DNA of 64,000 nucleotides from an uncultured Aliivibrio sp. (GCF_946479765.1 NZ_CAMLHO010000018.1:7877-71876), one strand, 5' to 3'; numbered from the stretch's first letter, positions 10,872-58,881 are shown. Translations and numbers: made by a program. The notes: generated from the sequence alone by a model not told the origin.

Positions 10872-10893
10872 TATTATTTATCTTTTATTGGTA

Positions 10894-12674: not shown

Positions 12675-12709
12675 AATGTGTTTAATTCCCTGATAAATGG
12701 ACATCTAAA

Positions 12710-13234
12710 TTAATTTTTATATTCGATTGTGATTACGCCAGTCTCTTCCGTTGGAGCAAGTTGGTATGACATATCAGTGTCGGTCAATTTCATTTTTTGG
12801 CGTAAATAATTACGACCACCGTGCTCACGAACCACTTCGATATGTAACGTATAGTCACCTTGTGGTAGCGTCTGGCCTGAGTCGTCTTTTCCATCCCAAC
12901 TGAATTTATATTTTCCTGCTGGTCGAGTTGCAGAAGTAACAGCATCAACTAATTCACGATCGTAACGACCGACTTTGCGCCACCAACTTCTTAGATCTTT
13001 TAGCCACTCATCTTTACCTACCCACAGCTCAATCGTTTTTACTGATTTACGTTCGCTGTTTTCAATCCACACCGCCACATAAGGACGCGCGTACATGGTG
13101 GTCGTAATCGTCGGAAGCTCAAAAGCAACATCGACTTTCGCACTCTCAGAAATAGCCGCTGAATTAGCCAAAAGAGGCGTCGTTACTATCATCGCTGCAA
13201 TTGAATGACGTAAATAGGTAGAGAGTGAAGCCAT
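12710..13234 (-). CDS. DUF2271-type periplasmic protein with FMN-attachment-like motif
   Basis: Start moved to MASLSTYLRHSIAAMIVTTPLLANSAA (signal peptide). Contains DAVTSAT (nt 12926-12946), which resembles the D-x-x-S/T-G/S-A-T flavinylation site of NqrC/RnfG-type proteins. Confidence 0.6.
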   Translation of the reverse strand: MASLSTYLRHSIAAMIVTTPLLANSAAISESAKVDVAFELPTITTTMYARPYVAVWIENSERKSVKTIELWVGKDEWLKDLRSWWRKVGRYDRELVDAVTSATRPAGKYKFSWDGKDDSGQTLPQGDYTLHIEVVREHGGRNYLRQKMKLTDTDMSYQLAPTEETGVITIEYKN

Positions 13235-13266
13235 TGTGATGTCCTTATGGATACAAGATAAAAGGG

Positions 13267-13911
13267 TTAAGGTACGGCAATAAAATACAATGCAAGCGTG
13301 ATTGATGAGCCAAATGCCATCCACTTCATTGATGTCATCAGTGTTCTTTTTTTCGGTAAAATTAAGCACACGCCGGTGAGTACAAAAAAGATCATTAATA
13401 GCGCGGTAATATCAATGAATGCCTTCCAGACCTCACCGCTGTTTCGTCCTTTGTGTAAATCATTTAATAAAGCAACAACACCATAATTTGAGCTTTCGAT
13501 GTCTGCTATACCTGTCGTTAAATCAATATAAACAGACGCGTTATAACCGGGGCCTTTATAGTTTAATGACAATTCACCCTCGACTAATTCACCGTCTTCA
13601 ACGTCGGTAAAAATATCGACATTAGAAGGCGTTCCAGAAAGGTCGGTATGTTGATTTAAGTAATCAAGCAAAGCAGCGGTATTTGGTTTATTCCAAAGGA
13701 TGTGTTGTTTTTCATCTTGAGAAAAAAGCACACTGTTAGGAACAGAAAGAGTGGTGTTTTTGATGTCTGGAGAACTACTAACAAACCAATCAGGACGATT
13801 TAGCGTGATCCCGGTGATCGAGAAAAATAAGACAACGAGTAGAAGCGCCATTGATACGTAAACATGTAAGCGACGCGCCCACAATTGTACTTGTTTGTTT
13901 TTAAGCAGCAT
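13267..13911 (-). CDS. PepSY-associated TM-helix protein (putative ferric-reductase-type membrane protein)
   Basis: Start moved to MLLKNKQVQLWARRLHVYVSM... because the ORF-track N-terminus is encoded by the Fur-box sequence. The N- and C-terminal TM helices flanking a periplasmic domain are typical of PepSY_TM proteins. Confidence 0.6.
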   Translation of the reverse strand: MLLKNKQVQLWARRLHVYVSMALLLVVLFFSITGITLNRPDWFVSSSPDIKNTTLSVPNSVLFSQDEKQHILWNKPNTAALLDYLNQHTDLSGTPSNVDIFTDVEDGELVEGELSLNYKGPGYNASVYIDLTTGIADIESSNYGVVALLNDLHKGRNSGEVWKAFIDITALLMIFFVLTGVCLILPKKRTLMTSMKWMAFGSSITLALYFIAVP

Positions 13912-13943
13912 GAATAAGACAGGATCGAGTAAGAATAATAGAC

Positions 13944-13967
13944 GATAATGTAATTGATAATGATTTG
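13944..13967. promoter_or_regulatory. Fur box (array of GATAAT-like hexamers)
   Basis: GATAAT GTAATT GATAAT GATTTG lies immediately upstream of the PepSY gene start at 13911. Confidence 0.65.
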
Positions 13968-14070
13968 CGTTGACATTCAATTTACATTGTTTACGTTTGT
14001 GGATTATTGACTGTCTATTTTATGGGCGATGGAAAAGCCCCCATCATTCGATAAGGGCATTAAATACAAG

Positions 14071-15273
14071 TTACACCGAATTACTGGCTGTCTTTCGTAA
14101 TTGAGATAAATATTTTATCCACCCTTTCGCTTCATTTGAAGGGGTAAAATCATTGGCTCTTTTCGCATAAAGTAAGGCTGAATCTATTTGGTTTAGCTTG
14201 TAATAAGCTCTTACTTTAGCTAATGCAATATCATCTGTCTTTTTGTAATCCTTAACCTTATCTAAGGTCTTCAAGCCTTGTTGATGATGACCCTCTTGGA
14301 TCTGCAATTGGGCCACTTGCCAATAATAACGTGAATCTAGCGTTGCAGCCTTTGACCAAGTAACAGTGGCTTTATCCCACTCTTTTGCTGCTTGCCAATA
14401 ACTTGCTTGCATGGTCAGTAGATCAATATCACTTTGTGCTTCATCTAGCTGACTAAGTACGTAAGCCGCCTTTTCTGGAATACCGCGTTGCGCATAAAGT
14501 TGAGCCAATAATTTCAACTCTGATTGACTCAATTCAATCCCTTGTCGCTCTGCAAGAACAAGGGTATCTAACGCATTTTTAGGTTGATCCAAGCGAAGCT
14601 GAATACTTGATAACTGCTGCCACCATGTCGCTTTATTTGGTTCAAGTACAATTAAACGGTTCAAGGTAGGGATCGCCGATTTCCATTGTTTTAATTGTAG
14701 TTGCGCCCCTAACTTCAGCACTAGCGATTGGCTTCTTTCACTTTTTTTCTTATATATCGCAACACGTTCATGCTTATTTAATGCAGAAAGTACCTTTTCC
14801 CATTGCGCCAACTGGTAATGTGTTTGAGAAATACGGAACCATAAATCGCCTATTTTTTGTTTTTCAGGCACTGAGTTCGCTAATTGATAATAATGCGGTA
14901 ACGCATCACTAAAGCGCTGCTCTGTTAATAATAAATCGGCAAGCATACGTTGCGTTATCCATGCTTGCTCATCGGCTAATTGCTGGCTATTTACCGCTTT
15001 AGTGAGATATTTAACGGCCGATTTACTACTCCCTGCCTGCCAATGAAACACACCCAACATACGTTGAATATAGGCTTTATCATAATCCTGAGAAGGGGTT
15101 AATTCGGCCAACACAGCAATTGCTTCGGGCATTTTTTCTTGCTGTTGTAATTGCAGTGCTCGCTGTACTTTACCCGCATTGTATTGGCTAAGTTGCTGAG
15201 CTTGCACTGCCCCAGCAAAAAATAAAGCAAAGCTAAGAATAAGAACAGAAGAATGTAATTTTAATTTCATCAT
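14071..15273 (-). CDS. ttpD: TPR-repeat protein of the TonB2 cluster
   Basis: Signal peptide MMKLKLHSSVLILSFALFFAGAVQA followed by repetitive TPR-like helices. ATGA overlap with the tonB2 stop and last gene of the TonB2 operon. Confidence 0.7.
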   Translation of the reverse strand: MMKLKLHSSVLILSFALFFAGAVQAQQLSQYNAGKVQRALQLQQQEKMPEAIAVLAELTPSQDYDKAYIQRMLGVFHWQAGSSKSAVKYLTKAVNSQQLADEQAWITQRMLADLLLTEQRFSDALPHYYQLANSVPEKQKIGDLWFRISQTHYQLAQWEKVLSALNKHERVAIYKKKSERSQSLVLKLGAQLQLKQWKSAIPTLNRLIVLEPNKATWWQQLSSIQLRLDQPKNALDTLVLAERQGIELSQSELKLLAQLYAQRGIPEKAAYVLSQLDEAQSDIDLLTMQASYWQAAKEWDKATVTWSKAATLDSRYYWQVAQLQIQEGHHQQGLKTLDKVKDYKKTDDIALAKVRAYYKLNQIDSALLYAKRANDFTPSNEAKGWIKYLSQLRKTASNSV

Positions 15274-15890
15274 TTTGCTAACGTAAACTCCAATTTCACC
15301 GTTTGTCCAACTTGAGCAATGGCTTTCCCACCGACTACTTTTGGTTGATATTTCCATTTTTTCAACGCTTTAACTGCTTCTCTTTCAAACATTCGACGCG
15401 GTTTAGCATCCGTTACTTTTACATTAGTTGGGCGACCTTGTTCATCAATGGTAAATGACATAACAACAAAGCCCTCTGCGCCTCTTTTCATCGCTTTTGA
15501 TGGATAACGAGGCTCAACACGATACAACGGCATCGCTTGTTGGTTACCTGTAAAATCAGCGAAACTCGGTGCATTTATCGCTAACCCCGAAATACCAGAA
15601 TCCAAGCTCATTGGTGGCATTGAACTTTGTGGCGTCGCCATTGAAGTTTGAGTTTGAGACGCCATTGGTTTTGCCTCTGGTGGCGGCTCTGGTGTCTCTG
15701 GTTTTTCAGGCACTCGACGTTGACGGCGCTGAATATCTTGTTCTTGCTCAACCATCACCATGTCAAAGCGGATCGTCTCACTGCTTTCTGGTTTGCCGTT
15801 ATGACCGTTGTCTACCATCCACGCCATAAACGTGAATAACCCTACCGTCATAGAAAGCGCAATAGGCACTGCCAACAATAATCGCCACAT
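15270..15890 (-). CDS. tonB2: Energy transducer TonB (TonB2 type)
   Basis: N-terminal TM anchor, Pro-rich spacer PEKPETPEPPPEAKP and a C-terminal TonB domain (YPSKAMKRGAEGFV). Confidence 0.85.
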   Translation of the reverse strand: MWRLLLAVPIALSMTVGLFTFMAWMVDNGHNGKPESSETIRFDMVMVEQEQDIQRRQRRVPEKPETPEPPPEAKPMASQTQTSMATPQSSMPPMSLDSGISGLAINAPSFADFTGNQQAMPLYRVEPRYPSKAMKRGAEGFVVMSFTIDEQGRPTNVKVTDAKPRRMFEREAVKALKKWKYQPKVVGGKAIAQVGQTVKLEFTLAK

Positions 15891-16294
15891 TAGTTTTTCT
15901 CCGCAGCCAATGCGATGCCTTTAACTCCTGCACCTTTAGCCGCATCCATTACTTTTACAACCGTACCGTTATACGCATGCTCATCTGCTTGAATCACTAA
16001 CGATGCATCAGGTTGTTCTAATAACAAATGCTCTAATGTGGCTTGAACTCGCTCGGCGTCCACCATGCGTTTATCAATGAAAATATCGTTTGAAGCCGTA
16101 ATAGCAACAAAGATACCCGCGTCTTTTTGACTCGATACATTGCTTGCTTGAGGGCGATTCACTTCTACCCCTGATTCACGCACAAATGAGCTAGTCACAA
16201 TAAAAAATATCAGCATGATAAATACGATATCGAGCATTGATGTTAAATCGATCTGTGCTTCTTCTTGATTTGAAGAACGACGGCCAAGTCTCAT
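15890..16294 (-). CDS. exbD2: Biopolymer transport protein ExbD/TolR
   Basis: 134 aa. Motif INLTSMLDIVFIMLIFFIV and the periplasmic domain are typical of ExbD. Confidence 0.85.
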   Translation of the reverse strand: MRLGRRSSNQEEAQIDLTSMLDIVFIMLIFFIVTSSFVRESGVEVNRPQASNVSSQKDAGIFVAITASNDIFIDKRMVDAERVQATLEHLLLEQPDASLVIQADEHAYNGTVVKVMDAAKGAGVKGIALAAEKN

Positions 16295-16800
16295 GACTGA
16301 CTCCTTAATGCTTTTTCTAAATTATGTTCTTTACGACGACACACTTTGGCTAAACGAGCATGAACAAACATTCCTGCTAATGCTGCTACCATTCCTGCCA
16401 TCGTAGGCAATGTTGCCAATGAAATACCAGACGCCATCAGTTTTGGCTGGCTGCTGCCTTGATTTGCCATTACATCAAATACAGAGATCATGCCTGTTAC
16501 TGTGCCTAGCAAACCGAGCATTGGGCAAATTGCCACAAGAACTTTGATAAAATTCAGATATTGATTTAATTGAAGGTGAGCTTCGCTTACCCAACCATCA
16601 CGGATCGTTTTCGCATACCACGAATCGTGATCGTCTCGCTGTTGCCATTTCTCTAACCATACTTTTCGTTGTGCAGGAAAAGTAAATAATAAGAAAAACA
16701 CACGCTCAACCACCAATAACCAACACACGGCAACAACTGCGCTTAACCACCATAAAATGGGGCCGCCTTGTGCCATAAAATGAGAGAGAAAAGCCGTCAT
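16291..16800 (-). CDS. exbB2: MotA/TolQ/ExbB proton-channel protein
   Basis: 169 aa with the conserved GLLGTVTGMI..F motif. Confidence 0.85.
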   Translation of the reverse strand: MTAFLSHFMAQGGPILWWLSAVVAVCWLLVVERVFFLLFTFPAQRKVWLEKWQQRDDHDSWYAKTIRDGWVSEAHLQLNQYLNFIKVLVAICPMLGLLGTVTGMISVFDVMANQGSSQPKLMASGISLATLPTMAGMVAALAGMFVHARLAKVCRRKEHNLEKALRSQS

Positions 16801-18155
16801 TACGCTGCCATTCCTACTGGTGTGTTATTGGTTTCTTTTTCTGCTTGCTCAGCCACCAAACTCAAGCCTTGTTTTTCAAGAATGGTACGAATACTTTCCG
16901 CTTGAGAGCTCAAAATATTGTGAGTTAATAACAGAGGCATCGCCGCAACTAAGCCTAATACCGTAGTCACAAGAGCCATTGAAATACCACCCGCCATCAC
17001 TTTAGGATCGCCATTACCAAATTGCGTGATCACTTGGAACGTTTCGATCATGCCGGTAACTGTACCTAGTAGACCTAACATCGGTGCTAGTGCAGCAAGA
17101 AGTTTAAGCATTGATAGGCCTTTTTCTAAGCCTTGCTGCTCATCAACAATGGTTTCTAATAAGCGAAGTTCTAATGCCTCTACCGAACGAGTTTTCTCTG
17201 CATCATAAACAGATAACACACGGCCTAGAGGGTTATTACCGATTTGCTCAGGATCTTTTAATTGAGTACGAATTTGCTGACGAATCACCAGTAACCTTGC
17301 GCCATTAAATAAAGAAATAAGTAGACCAATAGCCAATAGAACAATAATGATTTGTCCAACCACACCACCCGCTTGAAGACGATCTTTCAGGGTTGGTGAA
17401 TTTGCAAGTTGCTCTAACATGATGCCACGCGATGGATCAACTGCCATCATCATTACTTGCTGCTGTTGCATATCAGATAATGTAGCGACTGATGGCGCAA
17501 GGTCTGGCTGTTGTGAATAATACGTTGCTACGCTCTTTTTATTATCCCAACGTAGGAAGCCTTCATCACCAACAAGCGCCATATTGCCTAAACGGTAAGC
17601 ATTGATTTCAGAGCGGTGCCCTGCCCCATTGATTACCGTCACCGGCATTAACGCCAATTCTGAACTCGCCTGCACTTGTTGAGTCATTGTTTGCCATAAC
17701 CCTGTTAACTGAGTCATTGATGGCAATGATTTAGCCTCTACAATGTCATTAATCACTTGTGCATTATTAGCATCAATTGAACCTGTCACTGAGTTTTTTA
17801 ATTCAGAATTAAGATCTTTTGCCGTTTGTCTTACCACGCCAAACAACTCACCTAAACTGCCTGTTTCTAAATGTAATTGTTGCTCTAGCGTGGCAAGTGA
17901 TTGCTCATTACTACTGAATACAGAACTCAGTTCATCGCTCTCTTTTTGCAGTTTTTTACGCTCAGCAATCAAGGCGTTCTTTTGTGCTTTAAATTCTTTC
18001 TCTGTCAGCATAAAGCCAGCTTCACGTTCGGCATTGTGTTGTTTTTGAACATGGCTTGCTTGCTTTGTATCTTGAACTAATTCGCTACTTGCCGCTAACG
18101 TGTTTAGGGAAAATCCGAATAAAGACATCGCTAAAATAAGTGGTTTGATTGACAT
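16800..18155 (-). CDS. ttpC: MotA/TolQ/ExbB-family protein with large periplasmic N-domain (TtpC)
   Basis: 451 aa. Signal sequence, long coiled N-terminal domain and a C-terminal ExbB-like channel (LGLLGTVTGMIETF). The position is the canonical one in Vibrio TonB2 operons. Confidence 0.8.
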   Translation of the reverse strand: MSIKPLILAMSLFGFSLNTLAASSELVQDTKQASHVQKQHNAEREAGFMLTEKEFKAQKNALIAERKKLQKESDELSSVFSSNEQSLATLEQQLHLETGSLGELFGVVRQTAKDLNSELKNSVTGSIDANNAQVINDIVEAKSLPSMTQLTGLWQTMTQQVQASSELALMPVTVINGAGHRSEINAYRLGNMALVGDEGFLRWDNKKSVATYYSQQPDLAPSVATLSDMQQQQVMMMAVDPSRGIMLEQLANSPTLKDRLQAGGVVGQIIIVLLAIGLLISLFNGARLLVIRQQIRTQLKDPEQIGNNPLGRVLSVYDAEKTRSVEALELRLLETIVDEQQGLEKGLSMLKLLAALAPMLGLLGTVTGMIETFQVITQFGNGDPKVMAGGISMALVTTVLGLVAAMPLLLTHNILSSQAESIRTILEKQGLSLVAEQAEKETNNTPVGMAA

Positions 18156-18156
18156 G

Positions 18157-18924
18157 TTATTTCACCTCTTTCAGTGATAAAGACACGGGTAAAGCCAATA
18201 AACTCGGCGCGACTTGTTTGTAAGCCACTGAGTAAGCTTTAGCTAAGTCGTCATTAAATGATGAATCCAATAATGTCCATTGATTGCGGTAGGTATTCCA
18301 GATCCAGTATTGTGAAGCATCCAAACGACGAGCAAGCAAAGAAACGCGACCTAAATGCAACATATCAGCATCGATTAATTCATCATTTCCAACCGTGATT
18401 TGAGTTTGGTATGTGCCTAGTTTTGAGCCGTAATCCATCTCAATTTGATACGCTTCGAGAATACGACGATATTTTTCTGCATCGCTCACATCGGCTCTTG
18501 TCATCATGTGTTCTAGTTTTTCGATGCGTTGCTGACGTTCTGCAATCTTGATTGGTTTATCTTGTTCAACTAATACCGTAAGGCCAGATAGCATCTTATA
18601 CATCAAGGGTACTACGCCTTGACGAGTGTCTTTAATGGTTTCAATTTGAGAGTTTAAGTTGGTCATTTCTTTTTGTTGACTATCGACTAAACCAGTGAGG
18701 TGATCACGATAAACCGCAAGATTCTTTACTTCTTCTTGTAGTTGCTCTATCTCTGCTTTATATGCCAATGTTGCTTCAGAGCTTTTATCAATTTTTGTTT
18801 GACTCACAGCAGAGGCTGCATTCGATTTATTTTCGATAGATCGTGCTTGATCAAGCGTAGAGGCTTGAGCGGTTGTGATCACGGTAGCTAACGCTATTCC
18901 AATACTGGTTTTAAAAATATTCAT
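18157..18924 (-). CDS. ttpB: Periplasmic coiled-coil protein of the TonB2 system (TtpB, DUF3450-like)
   Basis: Signal peptide and coiled-coil-rich sequence. First gene of the operon, with a 1-nt gap to ttpC. Confidence 0.7.
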   Translation of the reverse strand: MNIFKTSIGIALATVITTAQASTLDQARSIENKSNAASAVSQTKIDKSSEATLAYKAEIEQLQEEVKNLAVYRDHLTGLVDSQQKEMTNLNSQIETIKDTRQGVVPLMYKMLSGLTVLVEQDKPIKIAERQQRIEKLEHMMTRADVSDAEKYRRILEAYQIEMDYGSKLGTYQTQITVGNDELIDADMLHLGRVSLLARRLDASQYWIWNTYRNQWTLLDSSFNDDLAKAYSVAYKQVAPSLLALPVSLSLKEVK

Positions 18925-19034
18925 ATTATCTATTTCTTAACTGTTATTTTTTAAGGTCTATCTCTTAAAAAATTTGCCTTCAAATAAACGCAGTAAAGGG
19001 AGACCTAAGCCTCCCTTATATTTAATGCGCTAAA

Positions 19035-21137
19035 TTAGTATTTAACTTGTAGTGTCGCCATGTAGTTTCGGCCTTCACCAATAACAACATTTTGTGCACC
19101 ATCTGTTTCATAGCCATTCTTACCTGTTGAACCGCCACCTGCTAGGTAATCTGTATCCAACACGTTTTCAACATTAAAGCGAGCTACGAAGGTTAAATCT
19201 TGGTCATACTTAATTGTATGAGATAAACCTAAATCAAAACGAGTGTAGCCATCTTTCTTAAAGGTATTAGCCGCATCACCGTAACGTTCACCTACATAAA
19301 TCGCACCTAGGTTTGCGTCCGTATTATTTGTGAATGCATAGCGAGTCCAGACTGTTGCTGAGTACTCAGGAACATCCGCAGGACGATTCCCTTGGTATTT
19401 TTCATCTTTTGCATATTCAGCATCTAAATAAGTTGCAGAACCACTCATCGATAATTTCTCAGTGATAAAGCCTTGCAGCGCTAATTCTGCACCACGGTGA
19501 ACACGTTCACCTGATTGCATTTTCTCTTTCTGACCATTACCTAAATCAACATCAATCGTTGAATTTTCTTGAGTAATATCAAATACGGCACCAGATACGA
19601 ACAATTGGTTATCCATTAGCTCCCATTTAGTACCTAGTTCGTATAGTTTACCGCGTAATGGATCTAACTTTTGACCATCATTTACATATTCACTACCAGA
19701 AACTTCACCTTGCATTTCAAAGCTTTCTGAATAAGTTGCGTAAATTGAGCCCGTATCTGTTGGGTGATAAATTACCGCAAATTTAGGAGACGTGGCCTCT
19801 TCAGCTAAACCCTCTTCAACTTGTCGATCAAAACGAACACCCACAAGTGCTTGCCATTGATCATTAAACGTAATCATATCTTGAGCATAGAAGCCCCAGT
19901 TATTGTATTCAGAACTTGTATCACGAGGATCTTTACTTGGATTACGTACAGGAGCCTCAGCTGGTTCACCAACCGTTGCTGTTGTACTGTTGAATGAATA
20001 CTCTAGTCGATCGTAACTGTAACCTAACCAGTTACTGCCGAATAACATTTGGTGGCTTACACCCAATGCATCAAATTCCCCGATAAGATCTATACTTGCT
20101 GTTTGGAATACCCATTTATCAGTACGATCACTACCTCCTTGCGTATAAGTACCTGTAGTTGGGTTATACGTTTCTTCTTTAGGGAAGCTTTCTACATCAT
20201 GACGATTAAAATCTTGATAGTTATAACTTGCATTAACGCGCCATGTGTCAGTTAAATTTGCTGCGACATCGATACCGATATTCTCAACATCATTTTCGAT
20301 TTTTGACCACTGAGCATCCCAGATATGGTCATCACCAATAACGGTTTTTCCGTCTTTAATGTAAGCACCTGAATCTACGCTACCATCATCAATCGTACGG
20401 TCATAATGCAACGATACAGTTACATCTTCTGTTACATCGTAATCCAGAAATAATCCGCCAACAAAACGTTCCGTTGAAGGAACCGTTCCATCACTGTATT
20501 CACGCCATGAGTTGTAAGTTTGTTTTGAAACAATGGCACGACCACGTAATGTTTGGGCATCATTTAATGAACCACTTACATCAGCAGTTGTTCGTGAATT
20601 ATTATTAGAACCCAGATCTTGGCTTATATTTACTTGAGTTTCGTACGTTGGCTTCTTAGCCACCATATTGACGAGACCACCAGGAGCTGATTGACCATAC
20701 AATAAACCTGATGGGCCTTTCAAAACTTCCACACGTTCTAATAATTCAATAGGTTGACGATAATGAGACCAATGCTGTTTTCCATCACGTAAGAAACCAG
20801 AACTACTACTTAACCCAAAACCACGTAAAGTAAATTGCTCACGATTACGGGTTGTAGCACCGGCACCAATACTCGCATCATTCTTCAGCACTTCACCTAA
20901 TGTACTCGCACGTTGCTCATCAATGATTTGCTCATCAATAACCGTTACTTGCCCAGGAGTTTCTAGTTGAGTTGCTTCCATACGCATTGATGTTGAGTTT
21001 GTGTCTGCTTTATAACCGTAATCACGACCAGTAACCACCATGTGCTCATCAGTAGTTGATGCGTCTGTTTCAGCGTAAGCAAGCGGGGTAGATAAAACTG
21101 CGCCAATAACAAGAGCCAACTGACTTTTAGAAAACAT
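19035..21137 (-). CDS. TonB-dependent siderophore receptor
   Basis: Signal peptide, TonB box HMVVTG, plug motifs (VEVLKGPSGLLYG) and a C-terminal beta-barrel ending in aromatic ...LQVKY. Confidence 0.9.
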   Translation of the reverse strand: MFSKSQLALVIGAVLSTPLAYAETDASTTDEHMVVTGRDYGYKADTNSTSMRMEATQLETPGQVTVIDEQIIDEQRASTLGEVLKNDASIGAGATTRNREQFTLRGFGLSSSSGFLRDGKQHWSHYRQPIELLERVEVLKGPSGLLYGQSAPGGLVNMVAKKPTYETQVNISQDLGSNNNSRTTADVSGSLNDAQTLRGRAIVSKQTYNSWREYSDGTVPSTERFVGGLFLDYDVTEDVTVSLHYDRTIDDGSVDSGAYIKDGKTVIGDDHIWDAQWSKIENDVENIGIDVAANLTDTWRVNASYNYQDFNRHDVESFPKEETYNPTTGTYTQGGSDRTDKWVFQTASIDLIGEFDALGVSHQMLFGSNWLGYSYDRLEYSFNSTTATVGEPAEAPVRNPSKDPRDTSSEYNNWGFYAQDMITFNDQWQALVGVRFDRQVEEGLAEEATSPKFAVIYHPTDTGSIYATYSESFEMQGEVSGSEYVNDGQKLDPLRGKLYELGTKWELMDNQLFVSGAVFDITQENSTIDVDLGNGQKEKMQSGERVHRGAELALQGFITEKLSMSGSATYLDAEYAKDEKYQGNRPADVPEYSATVWTRYAFTNNTDANLGAIYVGERYGDAANTFKKDGYTRFDLGLSHTIKYDQDLTFVARFNVENVLDTDYLAGGGSTGKNGYETDGAQNVVIGEGRNYMATLQVKY

Positions 21138-48018: not shown

Positions 48019-48258
48019 ATGCCATCAATGTCAGTGCCAATTCCTGATAGTTTAGAACAACAACTATCTTACCTAGCTGAATCAACAGGTAGAACAAAAT
48101 CATGGTTAGCAAAACAAGCTCTTCAAGATTATTTAGAAAAAGAGTCATGGCATATAGCAGAAATAAATAAGGCACTAAAAGAAGCTGATTTAGGCGACTT
48201 TGCTTCAAATGAAGAAGTGTCATTTATTTTTAATAAATGGGGCGTAAATGAAGATTAA
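48019..48258 (+). CDS. Ribbon-helix-helix (CopG/ParD-like) antitoxin
   Basis: 79 aa. N-terminal RHH pattern (SVPIPDSLEQQLSYLAESTGRTKSWLAKQAL), overlapping the toxin gene by 11 nt. Confidence 0.75.
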   Translation: MPSMSVPIPDSLEQQLSYLAESTGRTKSWLAKQALQDYLEKESWHIAEINKALKEADLGDFASNEEVSFIFNKWGVNED

Positions 48259-48532
48259 ATGGCTAAATACAGCTTTGGTCAATCTTGATTCAACAGCAAC
48301 TTATTTATATGAACGAAATCCGAATTCAGCAGACGTCTTTATTCGAGAAGTAAAAAGTTTAACAGAGCACCTTAAAGAGCAACCATCATTAGGGAGAAAG
48401 GGAAGAGTATTTGGAACTAGAGAGCTTATATTAACTAATTTTCCTTATATAATTCCTTATCGAATAAAAGATGATAATGTTGAAATATTAAGAGTATTTC
48501 CAACAAAAATGAAATTACCAAAGAAGTGGTGA
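48248..48532 (+). CDS. RelE/ParE-family toxin
   Basis: 94 aa. ParE-like features (...GRKGRVFGTRELILTNFPYIIPYRIKDDNVEILRVF) and the canonical antitoxin-toxin order. Confidence 0.75.
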   Translation: MKIKWLNTALVNLDSTATYLYERNPNSADVFIREVKSLTEHLKEQPSLGRKGRVFGTRELILTNFPYIIPYRIKDDNVEILRVFPTKMKLPKKW

Positions 48533-51997: not shown

Positions 51998-52945
51998 TTA
52001 ACGCCAAAACTCATCATTAGGATCGCTCTCTTCACACCACGCATTATCTCTTCGTGCCGCTAAATACCATTGCAAACCATCAAATAAACCAAACGCCGCT
52101 GGACCACCTAGATGCTCAAATGCATCAAAAAACGCATCTTCTTGCTCAACTAACCTCTCTAGTGAATGACACGAATGCGTTATCGCCCACTCGATGGCCT
52201 CAGGCTGAGCAATCGCCCCATCCATCACTACAGCAACAAGAGGCAAAACCGCACTTGATTGCTCTGCTTCATTTAACTCACGAAGATCGTCTTTATCTTG
52301 CTCTTGGCTTTTTATCTCATCAATAATTGCCCGACGATCTCGGTAAGAGACTTCACGATTTAAGGTTGCAATACGTAATGCATAAGCAAAACGCTCAGAT
52401 CCAACAATTTCCACAATTGTCTCTAATAACACCAAATCCAATGACAAGGCTTTTACGTGGTACTCAATACAGGCTTGAATACTCAAATAGCGTACACCAT
52501 TGAATTCATAACCATAACTTTCATCGTAACCATCTAATGGATCTCCATCGACCGAGATATCCCACCCAATATATTCCACTCGCGCCTTGGCTATTTCATA
52601 CATCGGCCACGCACTTTTACCAAACCCTTCCAAAATGGCACCATCGAACTCAGATTCTTCTAACTCTTCTTTGGTCCACTGCAAACCAATACCCAAATGC
52701 TTAGCGTACTTATTCATTAATGCATGTTTAATTTGATCTCGAAACGACCAGATAGATTCAGACACCCCAGCCGCAGGCAAAGCCAAGCACTCTTTACAGG
52801 CCGGAATTTCAATCGGTTGATGGGTAATTTGACTAGCTTGATGAGACGATTTAGGGAAAGAAAGGAGATCGAACGAAGGCTCACCACAAAACCAACAGGT
52901 GTGTCTGAGGTTAAAAGGAATATCAATAAGAGAATAATGAGCCAT
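51998..52945 (-). CDS. Hypothetical acidic protein with N-terminal zinc-ribbon-like CxxC...CxxC
   Basis: 315-aa ORF with CWFCGEPS...CKEC at the N-terminus. The remainder is acidic and unrecognised. Confidence 0.55.
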   Translation of the reverse strand: MAHYSLIDIPFNLRHTCWFCGEPSFDLLSFPKSSHQASQITHQPIEIPACKECLALPAAGVSESIWSFRDQIKHALMNKYAKHLGIGLQWTKEELEESEFDGAILEGFGKSAWPMYEIAKARVEYIGWDISVDGDPLDGYDESYGYEFNGVRYLSIQACIEYHVKALSLDLVLLETIVEIVGSERFAYALRIATLNREVSYRDRRAIIDEIKSQEQDKDDLRELNEAEQSSAVLPLVAVVMDGAIAQPEAIEWAITHSCHSLERLVEQEDAFFDAFEHLGGPAAFGLFDGLQWYLAARRDNAWCEESDPNDEFWR

Positions 52946-53002
52946 AGGGTTTCCATACTAAAAAAGAAAACCCTAGTTTAACTGATACTGAGTATTAAGA
53001 AA

Positions 53003-53125
53003 TTACTCTTTTCCTCTCAATATACGAAATGTATGTATCGCCATTGGAATAATGATCACTGCCAAGCCAATGATTAAAAATTCCATAAATATCATGAATG
53101 CACTTTGTGATTCACTAAAAAACAT
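53003..53125 (-). CDS. Possible small hydrophobic peptide (40 aa)
   Basis: Manual translation gives MFFSESQSAFMIFMEFLIIGLAVIIIPMAIHTFRILRGKE, a single TM helix with a basic tail. It is below the ORF-track cutoff and no SD was checked. Confidence 0.25.
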   Translation of the reverse strand: MFFSESQSAFMIFMEFLIIGLAVIIIPMAIHTFRILRGKE

Positions 53126-53555
53126 GCCGCCACCCTGAATTAATTAAGCCGTTATCACCTAGCCCAGTGATACTATTTTTGTATCTATACTCTGGGTTGA
53201 TTATTTTAGAGTTTTATCTCTATTATTTTCATTCTACGTATTATGCTGCTTTCCTTTGTAGTTTTATATATTTTATTCACAAAAAACAGAGCTTACATCA
53301 CAATTAACGAACCAAGTTAACTTACTGATATTAAACACAATAAATAACCGACTAAAAATAACGCTTATAGATAAGACGAAACAACACAACACGCTATTTA
53401 CTCAAGCAGCTCGCATTACCAACTATCACAACCTGAGTAAAGGGAGTAACCGAAGAATAAAGCAGTAGGAGTGAGAAAAACCAAAGCTAAACATTATTAA
53501 GGAAAAGAAAAGCTTGGTATGATTTGATAAAGATATTTTATATGGTTAAGTCATC

Positions 53556-54140
53556 ATGGCTGATAGCAATTATTACAATAACAATGCAGATACTTTTTTC
53601 ACAAATACCGTTGATGTAGATGTAAGCTCTCTCTATCAGGAGTTTACACCTTACCTTCCTGCCAATGCTAGCGTCATTGATGCTGGATGCGGTTCAGGCC
53701 GAGACACTCTGTATTTTTTAAAACAAGGTTATGACGTTATTGCGTTTGATGCGAGTAAACAATTAGTTTCACTCGCCACAATGCAGACACTGCATCCTAT
53801 TTCACATACCACCTTCTTAAAATTTACAACGAAAAAAGAAAGCCAAGATGGTATCTGGGCCTGTGCTTCTTTGCTTCATGTACCTATGAATGAATTACGA
53901 CAAACATTCCTTTACCTCAGCCAATTTCTTAAAAAAAATGGCATTTTCTATTGCTCATTCAAATATGGAGATAATGAAGTAGAACGAAATGGACGTCGTT
54001 TTACCAATCTGAATGAGACACGACTAGAAAAATTACTTATTACTCTACCGCTTTCCGTCAAAGCAATATGGATCACAGAAGATGTACGCCCAGATCATGC
54101 AAATGAACAATGGCTAAATGTAATTTTAGTTAAGTTATAA
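53556..54140 (+). CDS. Class I SAM-dependent methyltransferase (small-molecule-MTase-like)
   Basis: Motif I VIDAGCGSGRDT and post-I acidic residue (VIAFDAS). No (D/N)PP(Y/F) or PCQ/ENV DNA-MTase motifs are seen. Confidence 0.75.
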   Translation: MADSNYYNNNADTFFTNTVDVDVSSLYQEFTPYLPANASVIDAGCGSGRDTLYFLKQGYDVIAFDASKQLVSLATMQTLHPISHTTFLKFTTKKESQDGIWACASLLHVPMNELRQTFLYLSQFLKKNGIFYCSFKYGDNEVERNGRRFTNLNETRLEKLLITLPLSVKAIWITEDVRPDHANEQWLNVILVKL

Positions 54141-55262
54141 CCCTTTGAATAAAGTCATTCGGTGATGCTTTAAATATTTCTCATGCTCTCTATTTACATG
54201 GAAAGCCATTCCATCTGTAATACCTAAAATATCAGGTTTTTCTAACTGCCTAGATACCATAACTTTTCCTGAGTTTTCAAAAGAAATAAAACCAAGATCA
54301 AACGCTTTATCTAAATTAGCAAGTAATAATAAACCGTTAAATTTATCCAGACGCTCATCATTATTTGCATCTCGCCAAGGTTTGATATGTGAAGCAACCA
54401 ACATCTGTGTATTTTTATATCCAGTGACCGAACAGCCTTTCCACATTTCAATAAGTTGCTTTCTAAAGGTACCTTGCCCCATTCGAGTATTAACCATTAT
54501 TGATTTTTCAGTTTGAGTCAGTTTTTTATCTTCAAAAATATTTTTAAGATCTGTCTTAACGTCGATTTGAGATAAATCAGAAAGAAAACGTTGATATGAG
54601 TTTAGGGCTGCGCTGTACATACTATTGCCCCTAGCATTAAATTCTTTAAATTTGTCTAAGGAACGAGCACTTTCAGAAAGACGACAAAATTCACGAAAAG
54701 ACTTTATTTCAGTTAATGGTTCATCAAGAAGTCTCTCTTGTATCATCCAATTGGAAATTGACCCTTTAATTGCTTGAGAATAATTTCTAGCCGTCTTTTC
54801 TGATTTGCCAACATCAAGAAGCCACTGAATATATAGATCCGTTAAATCTGACAAATTTTCCACTAAAGAGTCTTTAAAATCATTAACCACTATCGGACTT
54901 TTGAGGTAATCAAACAGCTCTTCATCTAAATAGGCATAATCAACCGCTTTATTTGAGTACCCTTTAATAAGAGAAGCATCGATACCTTCTTGATAAGCTA
55001 AATGCCAAAAGCCTTCATTTTTAAGATGGAAAAAAGGATTTTCAGGAGTATCTCTATCTTGCCCTTGCTTACGCTCATTAAAGAAATGAGTAAACCGATC
55101 TTTTAATGTTGCATCAAGCTTAATCTTATTCTCATAGATATAGCCTGCCTGTATTAAATCCATAACAGAAAGCAACATGCAGACTTTATGAGGACTCTTT
55201 CGTCCTTTGTTATTATTCATGTTCAAGTTACGGAATTTGTCTACATAATAATCGACAGGCAT
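54135..55262 (-). CDS. HNH_2-type endonuclease with N-terminal DNA-recognition-like module (Type IV restriction-like)
   Basis: C-terminal HNH_2 pattern CSVTGYKNTQMLVASHIKPW...NGLLLLANLDKAFDLGFISF. N-terminal KSPHKVCMLLSVMDLIQAG...PFFHLKNEGFWHL resembles the reader domains fused to McrA/SBD-type nucleases (recognised from memory). Confidence 0.7.
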   Translation of the reverse strand: MPVDYYVDKFRNLNMNNNKGRKSPHKVCMLLSVMDLIQAGYIYENKIKLDATLKDRFTHFFNERKQGQDRDTPENPFFHLKNEGFWHLAYQEGIDASLIKGYSNKAVDYAYLDEELFDYLKSPIVVNDFKDSLVENLSDLTDLYIQWLLDVGKSEKTARNYSQAIKGSISNWMIQERLLDEPLTEIKSFREFCRLSESARSLDKFKEFNARGNSMYSAALNSYQRFLSDLSQIDVKTDLKNIFEDKKLTQTEKSIMVNTRMGQGTFRKQLIEMWKGCSVTGYKNTQMLVASHIKPWRDANNDERLDKFNGLLLLANLDKAFDLGFISFENSGKVMVSRQLEKPDILGITDGMAFHVNREHEKYLKHHRMTLFKGL

Positions 55263-55475
55263 ACATCATCCTATAAATAGCTTTAAGTTAGAATAAAATC
55301 ATGAAACTAATAATACTATACATTCTAGAAACTCATTAATATTAGTCAATATTTTATCGTAAAAAAACATAAAAAATATCAATAAATCAAAATGTTAGTT
55401 TATTTAGTTATTAATCACTTTTTTTAATAGAATATTAAACTATAATTCGGACAACATTCTTGTTTCGAGTAGTAC

Positions 55476-57346
55476 ATGGCTGAATTAATACCAACATTAA
55501 ACACCTGCTTATCAAAAATGACATCAGGTGAGAGACGCTTTGCTCAGCGTCTAGAGAGCTTATTAGAAGATGATTATATATGTTGGTATGACATTCCTGT
55601 CGGGCGTCTACGCCGTTACCCTGACTTTATTATTCTACATCCTGCTCGAGGGTTGCTATTTCTTGAAGTAAAAGACTGGAAACTCGATACAATAAAGAGT
55701 ATTGATTCCTGCCGAGTTGAACTACTTACCCCTAAAGGAATTGAAACAACAAGTAATCCAATTGAACAAGTTCGTCAATGCAGTTATCAAGTTATTGATA
55801 AACTCAAACGAGATAAATTGCTCATCAATCAAGAAGGGAAATACACTGGAAACTTATGTCTTCCTTACGGTTATGGTGTTGTACTAACCAATATTACTCG
55901 AACACAGTTAGATAGATCCATTCCCTTAGAAGCACAAGATTCAATACTTCCTCATCACTTAGTGATCTGCAAAGATGAAATGGTAAGTACAATGGATCCA
56001 GAGCAGTTTCAATCTAAGTTATGGCGTATGTTTAATTATCAGTTTGGAGATAAACTAACGTTACCTCAGATTGACCGTATTCGTTGGCATCTGTTCCCTG
56101 AGATTCGGATTTCAACATCAGTTCAACATCAGTTCAACAAACTTTACTTCCTTTAGAAGATAAAACCGAAGCCTTAAATCTACATAATCATATTCCCGAT
56201 ATCATTAAGATAATGGATATTCAACAAGAGCAATTAGCTCGAAGTTTGGGTGATGGGCATCGTGTTATTCATGGTGTCGCAGGATCTGGTAAAACTCTAA
56301 TTTTAGGCTACCGTTGCTTGCATTTAGCAGATCAATTAAAGAAGCCTATTCTTGTTCTCTGCTTTAACATCACATTAGCAGCAAGATTACGCAGCTTTAT
56401 TGATGACAAAGGCATTTCTGGACAAGTTCAGGTCTATCACTTTCACGATTGGTGCGGCCAACAAATTAAAACCTACCACTTAGATGTAATGAAAAGTGAG
56501 GCTCCTTATTGGGAACGACAAGTTGAAACTGTTATAAATGGCGTTGAAAAAGGGGTTATTCCAAAGGGGCAATATGGTGCATTACTTATTGATGAAGGGC
56601 ATGATTTTGAAGCCGAGTGGCTTACTTTAGTTACTCAAATGATAGACCCTGATACCAACTCCCTTTTATTGCTTTATGATGATGCTCAGTCTATCTATAC
56701 AAAGAAAGGAAATTTAGATTTCAGTTTAGCTAGTGTGGGGATTCAAGCCCAAGGTCGAACGACTGTATTGCGTTTAAATTATCGTAACACTAGAGAAATA
56801 CTGACATTTTCTTATCAGTTTGCTAAACAATATTTCGAAAATTCTGATGTAAAAGAGATCCCATTGATTCATCCTGAATCGGCAGGCATTACTGGCTCTC
56901 ACCCTGTTGTTAAGAAGTTTTCAACAATAGAAAAAGAGATTGAATATGCAATAAAATGCTTATTGCACTGGCAAAAACATGGTTATGCATGGAGTGATAT
57001 TGCGATTATCTATCCTTGTAAACACATTGGCACTTTAGTGGCTAATACTTTAAAAAAGAAAAATATTCCTTATATACTACTCGCTAAACCTGAATATAAG
57101 AGAAAATATAATCCTGCTAAAAATGTAGTCAATGTACTGCCAATTCCTAGTAGTAAAGGACTAGAATTTAAAACTGTCGTGATTTTAAACGCCTCACATA
57201 TTCCGAAAAAAAGCAGCGACCGCTCAGAAGATATCCGTCGTCTATATGTTGGAATGACACGTGCAACTCATAATTTACTTACGACTTATCATCAAGAAAA
57301 TGAGTTAAGCGAAAGCCTTGAAGCTGCGGTTACAATAAATGTATAA
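55476..57346 (+). pseudogene. NERD-domain / SF1 (UvrD-like) helicase fusion gene split by an 11-bp tandem duplication
   Basis: ORF1 (55476-56156) has the NERD pattern RRYPDFIILHPARGLLFLEVKDW. ORF2 (56213-57346) has Walker A GVAGSGKT, Walker B LLIDEGHD and C-terminal YVGMTRAT. Deleting one TTCAACATCAG unit joins both frames with no stop, giving 619 codons. Confidence 0.75.
56111..56139 (+). repeat. 11-bp tandem duplication TTCAACATCAG x2 plus partial TTCAACA
   Basis: Read directly: TTCAACATCAG TTCAACATCAG TTCAACA. The premature TAG follows at 56154-56156. Confidence 0.95.
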
Positions 57347-57476
57347 CCCCCAGCCCTTATTGTGACCCGTAGGGCCAAGACACAGCGAAGCGTTTTGTGG
57401 CTTGGTTGAGCCATTGGGGTTTGCGAAGAATGAGCGGCCCCAATTCGCGAGATAAAGCAGGTTGCCCGAAGGGTGC
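57347..57476. other. GC-rich, hairpin-dense ~130-bp element of unknown nature (structured RNA or repeat element candidate)
   Basis: It starts right after the helicase stop and is conspicuously GC-rich against AT-rich flanks. Stems are CCAAGACACA/TGTGGCTTGG (57375-84/57396-405) closing a GCGAAGC loop, GCCCT/AGGGC, and ATTGGGG/CCCCAAT. Confidence 0.4.
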
Positions 57477-57480
57477 TTTA

Positions 57481-57513
57481 ATGACTAAGAAATAAAGCCT
57501 ATCTCTTAGTCAT
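57481..57513. terminator. Perfect 10-bp stem hairpin ATGACTAAGA-N13-TCTTAGTCAT
   Basis: It lies 7 bp beyond the stop of the minus-strand 78-aa ORF. There is no clear U-tract on either strand. Confidence 0.4.
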
Positions 57514-57519
57514 CAATTA

Positions 57520-57756
57520 TTAAGCGATGTTGTTTAGGTTGCGCTGTTGATCCATGTATACCTTTAATCGGTTTACTCTTGATTCAATCTCTTTTTCTCT
57601 TAGCTCCCCACGCTTCATTGCGAAATTAATGGCTTGTTGGTCGTACACACCTTCATTTTGCATTTTCATATAACTAATGCTGTTTTTAAGTACTTCTTGA
57701 CTTCTGTCTCGCTCAATTGATTCGGTTTGAATTTTGCCAATTGCTTCTACTTTCAT
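57520..57756 (-). CDS. Hypothetical small coiled-coil protein (78 aa)
   Basis: ORF only, charged and helical in composition. Confidence 0.35.
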   Translation of the reverse strand: MKVEAIGKIQTESIERDRSQEVLKNSISYMKMQNEGVYDQQAINFAMKRGELREKEIESRVNRLKVYMDQQRNLNNIA

Positions 57757-57873
57757 ATAAACCTCAAACTACGATGTTTTTTATTATTTTATGGAACATT
57801 AGATCCAAGTTCTGTAGCGGTCAAGTAAAACTGGAGGTATTCAGCATGTGAGTATGAAAAATGCCTCTAATTT

Positions 57874-58728
57874 TTACTTCATTATTGGATAGGTGAAAAA
57901 TACAAGGTGAGCAAAATTAGACAAGAAGTGGAATAACACGGCAACCCACAAACGCGAGCTGTAGTGGTAGGCTAACCCATAGCCAACGCCTGCTAATGCT
58001 GCAAAAGCGACCAGTAATAATCCACCGCCAATATGAGCTAAACCAAAGAGTAAGCTTGCTATTGCCACACCCGTTATCCAACCAAATCGCTTACTTAATG
58101 ATTGCTGTATAAACCCACGAAAGAAGGCTTCTTCTGCTACACAGGTAAGTAATAAGTTATTTAATGCAAATAACCACCACCAGTTTGGGATGGTTAACTC
58201 GGGTTGTAATGCGCCTAATCCCCACGCTATTGGCAATAAGCTGAATAAGGGTATGGAGGTGAGTATAATGGCTTTTTTATTGAACGTTGCTTTACTTCCC
58301 AAGATGGTGGGATAAGCCAATAGTAGCCCAAAGAAGATGAATGGTTTATCTAGGTTTAAGTACATGGAAAACGGAATGCTTTGTGGCCCTGTGATAACGG
58401 CATCAAGCACTTTGGCATTAGTAAAACCTGGGATTAAGTGTAGAAAAAGAGCCACACACCAAAGGAAGATAAATAGGTAAGCACCTATCTGCCATTTGCG
58501 TTCTAAATTTGGGGTTTTATAAGCAATAAAAAGGCCGACAGTAAGAAAAACTAAGCCGGTTATATTTAACCTTTCTTCTATTATCCCTCCTACTAAGCTG
58601 ACGCCAAGCAGGGCTAAACTGGGTTTTATCTGATGACAAAAAGCAAATACAATGGCCAAAGCAAGTGGCAGCCAGATCCACATTGAGAGGTCTAAAATCA
58701 TAACAAGTCCTTTAAAAAGTAATAGCAA
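57874..58728 (-). CDS. CPBP-family intramembrane glutamic endopeptidase (CAAX protease/Abi-like)
   Basis: Motifs EEAFFRGF, FGLAH and HFLSN in a polytopic membrane protein. Confidence 0.8.
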   Translation of the reverse strand: MLLLFKGLVMILDLSMWIWLPLALAIVFAFCHQIKPSLALLGVSLVGGIIEERLNITGLVFLTVGLFIAYKTPNLERKWQIGAYLFIFLWCVALFLHLIPGFTNAKVLDAVITGPQSIPFSMYLNLDKPFIFFGLLLAYPTILGSKATFNKKAIILTSIPLFSLLPIAWGLGALQPELTIPNWWWLFALNNLLLTCVAEEAFFRGFIQQSLSKRFGWITGVAIASLLFGLAHIGGGLLLVAFAALAGVGYGLAYHYSSRLWVAVLFHFLSNFAHLVFFTYPIMK

Positions 58729-58881
58729 CGTCTAAGTGCGTCTTAAATGTGATACTAAGCCTACTGATAGGCTGCAACAATGAAAAGATAAATACACTTT
58801 TTTGTCGATGTTTTTAAAGGACTGTCTCTTTATGGTGACTTTATTTTACTTAATCACCTTTCAATGATCTCTAGAGGTTAT

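Follow-up and report, generated by a model that had tools for sequence, protein, structure and literature searches.

The locus and its genes

A 64,000-nucleotide stretch of DNA from an uncultured Aliivibrio sp. (NZ_CAMLHO010000018.1:7877-71876; here called the window) carries, side by side, the genes for a small class I S-adenosylmethionine (SAM) methyltransferase, an HNH_2 nuclease and a NERD-helicase protein, and a first-pass annotation had proposed that the three might form a new defence system or else be two or three stacked single-gene systems. By open reading frame (ORF) calls, Pfam searches and GC content, we found the three genes, their domains, their AT-rich flanks and the frameshift in the third gene where that annotation had put them. 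The methyltransferase (MTase) gene (53556-54140, plus strand) encodes 194 aa with Pfam matches to Methyltransf_11/25/23 only, and the nuclease gene (54135-55262, minus strand) encodes a three-domain protein of 375 aa. As had been noted, the two ORFs converge and overlap by 6 nt in the sequence TTATAA at 54135-54140, such that each stop codon covers the last Leu codon of the other gene. The third gene is present as two fragments in different frames on the plus strand: a 226-aa NERD fragment (55476-56156; Pfam NERD, E = 1.5e-11), which is the N-terminal part of a disrupted NERD-UvrD gene, and a 377-aa SF1 UvrD-like helicase fragment (56213-57346; Pfam UvrD_C, UvrD-helicase and AAA_19), which is its C-terminal part.

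The left flank of these genes (52946-53555) is AT rich and free of genes, with a GC fraction of 0.318, compared with 0.396 for the whole window, and no ORF of at least 50 aa starting between 52982 and 53556. The divergent intergenic region between the nuclease gene and the NERD fragment (55263-55475, 213 bp) is more AT rich still, with a GC fraction of 0.202. The closest reference loci are on the chromosome of Aliivibrio logei, where the nuclease is 94% identical, and on chromosome II of Aliivibrio fischeri ES114, where the orthologues are VF_A0136 (nuclease) and VF_A0137 (MTase).

A conserved methyltransferase-nuclease pair

In 33 of the 44 species loci that encode a full-length nuclease (2 of which lie on contigs too short to judge), an MTase of ~200 aa that belongs to one BLAST-connected family directly adjoins the nuclease gene. 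Most often (27 of the 33 pairs) the MTase gene lies immediately upstream on the same strand, with gaps of −10 to +23 nt; four pairs converge as in the window (A. logei, A. fischeri, a gammaproteobacterial metagenome-assembled genome, or MAG, and Alteromonas confluentis), and in two the MTase gene lies downstream on the same strand. The pairs were found in Aliivibrio, Vibrio, Photobacterium, Thaumasiovibrio, Rheinheimera, Shewanella and Alteromonas. The MTase and the nuclease are thus a strongly conserved pair that occurs in three gene arrangements. The upstream MTases of the 27 loci are of a “B type,” ~25% identical to the window MTase, which has all of the invariant residues of the “A type” of this nuclease-associated family. 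The two types align end to end and have a common C-terminal R...W motif, and one locus (L011) carries an A-type MTase, 56% identical to that of the window, in the upstream position typical of the B type, so that the two subtypes are interchangeable.

The nuclease is built of three domains. When we searched with a profile of 19 aligned nuclease sequences, residues 1 to 138 (54849-55262, minus strand) matched the sulfur-binding domain (SBD) of the Hga restriction enzyme (PDB 8h0l, E = 1.3e-39) and residues 228 to 374 matched the HNH domain of VcaM4I (PDB 6yex, E = 1.9e-36). The C-terminal domain (residues 233 to 375; 54138-54566, minus strand) was also matched by Pfam HNH_2 (E = 2.6e-10, residues 277 to 329) and by the PADLOC HNH model PDLC04132 (E = 2.5e-26). 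In an AlphaFold2 (AF2) model with a mean predicted local distance difference test score (pLDDT) of 71, the SBD was well predicted, and Foldseek aligned it with the SBD of Hga at target-normalised TM-scores of 0.76 to 0.81 and 42 to 43% identity, retrieving the SBDs of SprMcrA and ScoMcrA as well; PF26340 (DNA-SBD_ScoMcrA) is precomputed on many of the nuclease orthologues. The N-terminal module had been recognised in the first-pass annotation as an SBD/McrA-type reader, and both the profile match and the structure search bear this out. Between the two outer domains lies a middle domain (residues 139 to 232; 54567-54848, minus strand) that is all helical in the AF2 model and gave no PDB or Pfam match in profile, Pfam and Foldseek searches. 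It is common to shorter HNH_2 proteins that have no SBD and match residues ~146 to 373 of the query only (L044 to L068).

The sulfur cavity of the Hga SBD consists of H25, K26, L75, P76 and H79 (PMC10602919), and the equivalent pocket of the window nuclease is H25, K26, N75, P76 and H79, with four of the five residues identical. Across the 19 aligned sequences, H25, K26 and P76 are invariant and N75 and H79 occur in at least 90%, while in the HNH region H292, N309, N316, D318 and D322 are invariant. The nuclease has 870 detectable homologues, the full-length ones being nearly all 374 to 377 aa long, with identities of 77 to 94% within Aliivibrio, ~60% in Vibrio and Photobacterium, ~50% in Rheinheimera and Shewanella and ~40% in Alteromonas; no full-length close homologue was found on plasmids. 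Because the protein joins an SBD at its N terminus to a VcaM4I-like HNH domain at its C terminus, we predict that it is most likely a phosphorothioate-DNA-dependent restriction enzyme and, judged by its sequence, it is a new and distinct member of the SBD-HNH class.

Some loci carry this nuclease without the MTase. In four divergent SBD-HNH loci (L036, L037, L042 and L043), a HIT-family hydrolase of 133 to 162 aa occupies the upstream operon slot of the MTase, and five of the 44 loci have neither gene beside the nuclease. Among the latter, L014 and L022 have intact nuclease ORFs of 375 to 377 aa and no MTase or HIT match, and in Vibrio hepatarius (L025) an intact nuclease ORF stands behind a 48-aa 3' remnant of the MTase gene. 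Since these three loci keep an intact nuclease and a HIT hydrolase substitutes for the MTase in four others, the MTase is dispensable for carriage of the nuclease. In one A. fischeri contig of 1,435,138 bp (P0253/P0268), both the nuclease (87 aa) and the MTase (111 aa) are present only as fragments, which hints that the two genes may decay together.

The MTase family was also found beside other nucleases. A metagenome scan seeded with MTase peptide patterns only, in which neighbours were classed within 400 nt of the MTase, gave 80 loci, 13 of them with too little flank to judge. A nuclease adjoined the MTase in 59 of the 67 informative loci: a ~350-aa protein with a Cas9-like HNH domain in 39, a protein of ~800 to 1000 aa with PLD and SF2 helicase domains in 18, an SBD-HNH protein in 1 and an AIPR/AbiU-like protein in 1. 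The remaining eight loci had no such neighbour. The MTase and PLD-helicase pair occurs in Vibrio cholerae, Shewanella avicenniae, Vibrio vulnificus and Pseudoalteromonas, and the MTase and ~350-aa HNH pair occurs in Vibrio parahaemolyticus, Thalassotalea, Aliiglaciecola and A. fischeri (where the MTase is a second paralogue), as well as next to CRISPR I-F on an Acinetobacter plasmid. Nearly every isolate and plasmid that we checked had a nuclease beside the MTase. We considered whether the N-terminal domain of the ~350-aa HNH partner might be another SBD and rejected the idea: hhalign (A1 versus A4) gave a probability of 0.4%, over the HNH region only, and a PDB profile search with this partner found only Cas9-type HNH domains. 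The neighbourhoods of the modules contain genes for HipA toxin-antitoxin, Mks, DISARM-like, SauUSI, BrxR and DUF4238 proteins and are typical defence islands; in Shewanella, an MTase-nuclease pair stands alone downstream of smpB.

Relatives of the MTase at 50 to 60% identity number in the thousands across the gammaproteobacteria. On the Polaromonas plasmid pW11NP2 (L182, 4486-6243), one annotated ORF, labelled a DEAD/DEAH helicase and followed by an ISNCY transposase gene, contains the MTase region; this ORF is apparently an MTase fused to its nuclease partner. Long ORFs (307 to 403 aa) that contain the MTase were also seen in four metagenome loci (L141, L146, L155 and L164). Homologues occur in nine phage records, the cultured phages at 27 to 31% identity; these include near-full-length distant homologues in Vibrio phages of ~191 to 196 kb and in Escherichia phage phi458 (H48 to H53). 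The window MTase and its counterpart in A. logei (L001, 11123-11707) are 72% identical in amino acid sequence, with the abutting nuclease at 94% and the flanking transporters at 94 to 97%, which suggests either faster evolution of the MTase or replacement of the allele.

What the MTase resembles is not a DNA methyltransferase. Its similarity to TehB, TPMT, UbiG and BioC is weak and for the most part does not extend beyond the SAM-binding or N-terminal portion of the fold. The best Foldseek hit of its AF2 model (pLDDT 95.6) is 3e23 (the uncharacterised RPA2492), with small-molecule, protein N-terminal and tRNA MTases ranking next, and no DNA MTase is among the top 50 neighbours. The protein is small and acidic (family median pI, 5.4), and the sequence that follows strand β4, ACASLLH, lacks a (D/N/S)PP(Y/F) motif. 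The N6A, N4C or C5 family membership, motif IV and target-recognition domain that mark the MTases of Type II restriction-modification (R-M) systems are all missing, and the matches are generic class I ones. Pfam, Foldseek, size and pI agree with the earlier assignment to a class I SAM fold without DNA MTase catalytic motifs, and by both sequence and model the MTase is not of the DNA type.

These features bear directly on the alternative that the pair is a classical R-M system, in which the small MTase would mark host DNA, on the bases or possibly on the backbone, and the nuclease would cut unmarked DNA, its SBD-like domain having been re-purposed for ordinary DNA binding. The gene organization speaks for such a system: the pairing is tight, often with overlapping start and stop codons, its three arrangements include the convergent layout common in R-M systems, and both genes are reduced to fragments together in the A. 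fischeri contig. The ES114 orthologue was annotated as a [quoted passage not shown] and LlaJI provides a precedent for Type-IV-like nucleases that are paired with MTases and cut unmodified DNA. The pocket can be read either way, since a polar Asn stands at position 75, where other SBDs have Leu or Tyr, but the remaining four sulfur-pocket residues are kept. The MTase itself, with 194 aa, a pI of ~5.4, none of the hallmarks of a DNA MTase and structural neighbours that act on other substrates, fits poorly. Two further observations led us to regard a classical, sequence-matched R-M system as unlikely: the nuclease is tolerated without the MTase, either alone or with a HIT hydrolase instead, contrary to the expectation for a Type II system that the nuclease should not be kept without a protective methyltransferase, and MTases 50 to 60% identical to that of the window serve three unrelated nuclease architectures, which is hard to square with matched specificity.

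The NERD-UvrD cassette and its hotspot

The NERD-UvrD gene occupies a 2.07-kb cassette (55280-57351, plus strand) that is an insertion or deletion relative to A. logei: blastn homology to the A. logei locus (L001) ends at window position 55279 and resumes at 57352, with 87 bp in between in A. logei. Strains of A. fischeri with identical nucleases also differ, one (L185) having a 620-aa NERD-UvrD gene and another (L184) three small ORFs instead. In the window, alignment with the intact 619-aa alleles of two near-identical contigs (L082 and L083) traced the frameshift that had been reported to an 11-bp tandem duplication, TTCAACATCAG, at 56111-56121 (plus strand). This is the only difference from the intact alleles at the NERD/helicase junction, and L082 is 99.8% identical to the window by blastn. 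Among near-identical contigs, both alleles are common, the split one being present in five independent assemblies and the intact one in four.

The intact allele contains one full copy of the 11-bp repeat followed by a 7-nt partial copy and is prone to slippage. A gene for a CPBP/Rce1-like intramembrane protease (57874-58728, minus strand) shows a clean presence/absence difference over window positions 57862-58810: in L082, 32 bp stand in its place, and the sequence on either side is 99.8% identical to the window. The split allele occurs together with the CPBP gene in L081 and L085, and the intact-allele contigs L082 and L083 do not have that gene. Because the CPBP gene tracks the split allele, two lineages fit these data better than rapid switching or phase variation.

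The two fragments match the PADLOC model PDLC01087 separately, the NERD fragment over profile positions 1 to 192 of 559 (E = 4e-58) and the helicase fragment over positions 197 to 555 (E = 1.9e-104), and the intact 619-aa allele matches it end to end (positions 1 to 555, E = 2.5e-166), implying that the window holds a disrupted member of this candidate family. The view of the gene as a single-protein nuclease-helicase is thus supported, with the family a candidate for defence. The NERD-UvrD gene is an independent, separately acquired cassette that is inactivated in this genome.

The block varies between close strains, as the first-pass annotation had suggested it might, with the cassette present or absent within A. 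fischeri and missing from A. logei. A second variable slot lies inside the left flank (53187-53495), which has no blastn match to the A. logei locus. There, A. logei carries a 1.37-kb DUF900 hydrolase gene, and A. fischeri strains carry either DUF900 or DUF900 plus a dnd island; no DUF900 remnant was detected by tblastn in the 610-bp left flank of the window. In two A. fischeri loci (L186 and L187, ~7900-20600), the slot, next to genes for a 315-aa protein and DUF900, contains a 682-aa gene, an MTase paralogue 54% identical to that of the window, a 367-aa HNH_4 protein, dndBCDE and the dnd-associated genes HATPase_c_3, DNA_S_mod_dnd_assoc_4 and an SMC-like gene. We regard the block, which lies on chromosome II of Aliivibrio, as a hotspot for defence genes. 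The presence of dndBCDE in the same hotspot of some A. fischeri strains implies that phosphorothioate DNA circulates in the genus, making it a plausible target of the SBD-HNH nuclease. In the window itself, tblastn with DndB, DndC and DndD from L173 found no homologue, in keeping with the earlier statement that dnd genes are absent; ssp genes were not searched for. A general link between dnd and MTase-nuclease pairs was considered and discarded, as the same three queries hit only A. fischeri loci among the loci fetched by then.

Other features of the region are minor. A promoter-like site for the nuclease gene (TTGACT-16-TAGAAT, 55322-55349, minus strand) is a consensus match only, at 10 of 12 positions, and promoter-like sites were no commoner than in shuffled sequence (15 versus 20.0 ± 4.5 expected). 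An Rfam scan of the whole window gave no family at the gathering score, and a repeat search of 52900-57900 gave just short two-copy matches, none of them paired across the two ends of the cassette. We saw no integrase or tRNA gene in the parts inspected, for which only the ORFs at ~49.7 to 58.7 kb were annotated and no tRNA scan was made. About 5 kb upstream of the MTase gene, a low-GC patch (48019-48532) encodes an RHH antitoxin (79 aa) and a ParE toxin (94 aa), with domains assigned through the Pfam hits precomputed for the corresponding L081 genes; this patch is consistent with a mobile or variable region.

Of the two possibilities that the first-pass annotation had left, that of a new three-gene system was not supported in the form proposed, as the genes are not one syntenic unit; what stood was a conserved MTase-nuclease pair beside a stand-alone NERD-helicase gene. 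Outside Aliivibrio, none of ~40 other full-length nuclease loci has all three genes intact, and within the genus A. logei has the MTase and HNH nuclease without the NERD-helicase, the A. fischeri strain of L184 has three small ORFs in the NERD-helicase slot and the window copy is frameshifted.

NERD proteins of another kind do accompany some of the modules. An iterative search of every fetched locus found NERD ORFs in 8 of the 44 SBD-HNH loci, 3 of 36 short HNH_2 loci and 1 of the 80 metagenome MTase loci. A NERD-only subfamily of ~316 to 355 aa, with members 38 to 73% identical over their full length, lies beside modules with three different nuclease types: MTase plus SBD-HNH in Vibrio paucivorans and Vibrio aquaticus (L004 and L012), MTase plus PLD-helicase in V. 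cholerae (L091), HIT plus SBD-HNH in a MAG (L037) and, in L190, MTase plus HNH in what looks like a NERD-MTase-HNH operon, the genes being 21 and 0 nt apart. Some 200 C-terminal residues of these proteins lie outside the NERD domain, and the one member scanned (that of L091) gave only a weak PglW match in PADLOC.

These associations raise the possibility of a three-component system in which the MTase, the nuclease and a NERD-family protein act together, with the window representing a decayed copy. In addition to the NERD-only subfamily, relatives of NERD-UvrD are neighbours of HNH_2 genes in V. hepatarius and a Bacteroidetes MAG, and by strict criteria 5 of 38 informative SBD-HNH modules have a NERD gene immediately beside them, compared with 0 of 59 comparison loci (Fisher p = 0.008), although the loci are phylogenetically non-independent, the numbers are small and defence islands cluster such genes anyway. 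The enrichment argues against complete independence of the NERD genes. However, the NERD-UvrD protein of the window belongs to a NERD family with no BLAST hit to the ~320-aa NERD-only subfamily and matches a stand-alone single-gene model from end to end; it comes and goes among strains with identical nucleases, is absent from A. logei and is broken here beside an intact MTase and nuclease. About 85% of the modules have no NERD neighbour at all. We therefore take the NERD link to be facultative, or to reflect shared residence in islands, and do not see an obligate triad in it; we consider a three-component system quite improbable.

Function of the module and comparison with known systems

Taken together, these results suggest that the locus is probably a conserved MTase-nuclease module joined by a separately acquired, broken single-gene NERD-UvrD cassette in a defence hotspot. 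If the nuclease works as SprMcrA, EcoWI and Hga do, its SBD would dock onto the sulfur atom of Rp-phosphorothioate linkages in DNA that enters the cell, and cleavage by the HNH domain would follow close by. On that analogy, the balance tips slightly towards a role for the nuclease in restricting DNA that arrives from dnd- or ssp-positive donors or phages.

Several observations weigh against this reading. At pocket position 75, where Hga has Leu and both ScoMcrA and SprMcrA have Tyr, the window nuclease has Asn, and the ligand of its SBD may for this reason not be sulfur. The NCBIfam model NF045808 (PT-DNA_restrict) scores 60.1 bits against a cut-off of 180, its best-scoring stretch being the N-terminal SBD part (profile positions 5 to 90, E = 1.9e-16). 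The HNH region is poorly modelled by AF2, with pLDDT below 50 at residues 268 to 290; the metagenome tally rests on our own ORF calls and BLAST classes, not on curated annotation; and NERD genes are enriched beside SBD-HNH modules, as described above. Finally, modification-dependent (Type IV) nucleases are normally thought to need no methyltransferase. The tight pairing with an MTase is for that reason unexplained, and the module could be R-M-like.

Under the reading that we favour, the MTase would be a dedicated accessory of interchangeable nuclease effectors, namely, SBD-HNH proteins, ~350-aa Cas9-like-HNH proteins, SauUSI-like PLD-helicases and AbiU/AIPR proteins, rather than an enzyme that methylates DNA bases at specific sequences. 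We suggest, tentatively, that it might limit self-damage or condition the nuclease through methylation of the partner protein, of a nucleotide or of a small molecule, and the replacement of the MTase by a HIT hydrolase in some loci suggests a nucleotide-level substrate. In a more specific and rather unlikely version of this idea, the small MTase would define an undescribed, widespread class of two-gene modules (sometimes three-gene modules, with the ~320-aa NERD protein) in which the accessory neutralises modified nucleotides released from degraded invader DNA. The MTase might, for example, S-methylate, or the HIT hydrolase desulfurate, nucleoside phosphorothioates, which would then not be re-incorporated into host DNA, where the nuclease would turn against the cell. 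The reaction of HINT1 on dGMPS releases H2S, and the proteins to which the MTase is weakly similar include the chalcogen and thiol methyltransferases TehB and TPMT. Human HINT1, a member of the HIT family, is reported to be active on the thiophosphate nucleotide dGMPS (PMC8775712).

That the two genes are chance neighbours, the MTase being a housekeeping small-molecule methyltransferase beside an island insertion site, would agree with its generic Pfam hits, its weak similarity to TehB, TPMT, UbiG and BioC and the fixed chromosomal position of the pair in three Aliivibrio species, but is very improbable given that the adjacency recurs in unrelated contexts, on plasmids, in different orders and once as an apparent fusion, and that the Shewanella pair stands alone downstream of smpB.

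The module presents a paradox, in that in many genera a single family of MTases of a non-DNA type has SBD-HNH proteins, SauUSI-like PLD-helicases and Cas9-like-HNH proteins as its neighbours. To understand why they are paired could bring to light a new means by which host cells control restriction-type immunity or keep themselves safe from it. Our reading also predicts that Vibrionaceae would restrict phosphorothioate-marked DNA, which is relevant because dnd islands occupy the same hotspot in sister strains, and it makes the Hga-like SBD with its Asn pocket variant a candidate reagent for detecting DNA backbone modifications. The NERD-UvrD part is ordinary, a known candidate gene that is broken here. 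In the searchable literature and in the PADLOC and NCBIfam hits, we found no description of the MTase family or of its pairing with nucleases, the literature searches having covered the MTase-HNH, MTase-PLD-helicase and NERD-UvrD combinations; a paper on the END nuclease concerns a different protein. The nuclease-associated small MTase family is apparently an undescribed element, and the SBD-HNH protein and the NERD-UvrD gene are of known kinds.

Among known systems, the NERD-UvrD gene is closest to the PADLOC candidate NERD+UvrD (PDLC01087, C3a187), with which it has in common a nuclease domain and an SF1 helicase in one polypeptide, except that the window copy is split by the 11-bp duplication. 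Nhi and the GajB protein of Gabija are related to NERD-UvrD in architecture. No Nhi-named model was among the 17 PADLOC hits at E ≤ 1e-5 for NERD-UvrD (whether the library contains an Nhi model was not checked); GajB gave partial hits to the helicase fragment only, and no GajA was among the PADLOC hits of the six ORFs at 52001-57756. For MADS, the similarity of the MTase to mad2 is confined to the SAM-binding core (profile positions 289 to 404 of 492), a MAD6 hit has E = 0.009, and no other mad model was found in neighbouring ORFs.

Two systems are comparable with the module in its pairing of components. The PLD-helicases that partner the MTase in V. cholerae, V. vulnificus, Shewanella and Pseudoalteromonas (~970 to 1007 aa) match Type IV models like that of SauUSI, an enzyme with PLD, SF2 helicase and DUF3427 domains, over their first ~600 residues; they differ from it in usually ending in Peptidase_S24 (LexA/UmuD-like) instead of DUF3427 and in being preceded by the small MTase. 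Ambrosia (bioRxiv 10.1101/2025.09.30.679545), like classical Type II R-M systems, combines an MTase with an HNH nuclease that descends from Type IV enzymes. The MTase of Ambrosia, however, is an N6-adenine DNA MTase, and a two-component regulator goes with it, whereas the window has a Methyltransf_11 MTase of a non-DNA type and no regulator.

The nuclease has its closest counterparts among modular modification-dependent enzymes. VcaM4I of Vibrio campbellii is an EVE-HNH modification-dependent endonuclease with a modular design of reader plus HNH (PMC7897488). The window nuclease has a homologous HNH_2 catalytic domain and the same plan, but VcaM4I has as its reader not an SBD but an EVE domain, which belongs to the PUA superfamily and senses modified bases. 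Hga of Hahella ganghwensis, which consists of an SBD and a PD-(D/E)XK nuclease and restricts phosphorothioate DNA with little sequence preference (PMC10602919), provides the closest solved SBD (8h0l), with the same H25/K26/P76/H79 pocket. It differs in its nuclease domain, at positions 75 (Leu in Hga, Asn in the window) and 72 (Asn in Hga, Thr in the window) and in the DNA contacts of loop L1.

SprMcrA, EcoWI and their relatives are SBD-HNH phosphorothioate-dependent restriction endonucleases, to which ScoMcrA adds an SRA domain (PMC7461809, PMC6224610 and PMC7470945). The hydrophobic sulfur pocket of these members is marked by HR or HK and by YP. One of these studies includes a gene neighbourhood analysis, and the word “methyltransferase” is absent from its text (PMC7461809). 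The window nuclease resembles these enzymes in the order of its domains, N-terminal SBD and then C-terminal HNH, in the HK and P residues of its pocket and in its location in a region without dnd genes. It differs from them in an SBD only 14 to 17% identical to those of SprMcrA and ScoMcrA in Foldseek alignments, in an extra helical middle domain of ~95 residues, in an HNH domain of the HNH_2/VcaM4I type, in Asn rather than Tyr at position 75, in falling below the NF045808 cut-off and in being of a type that is nearly always paired with a small MTase.

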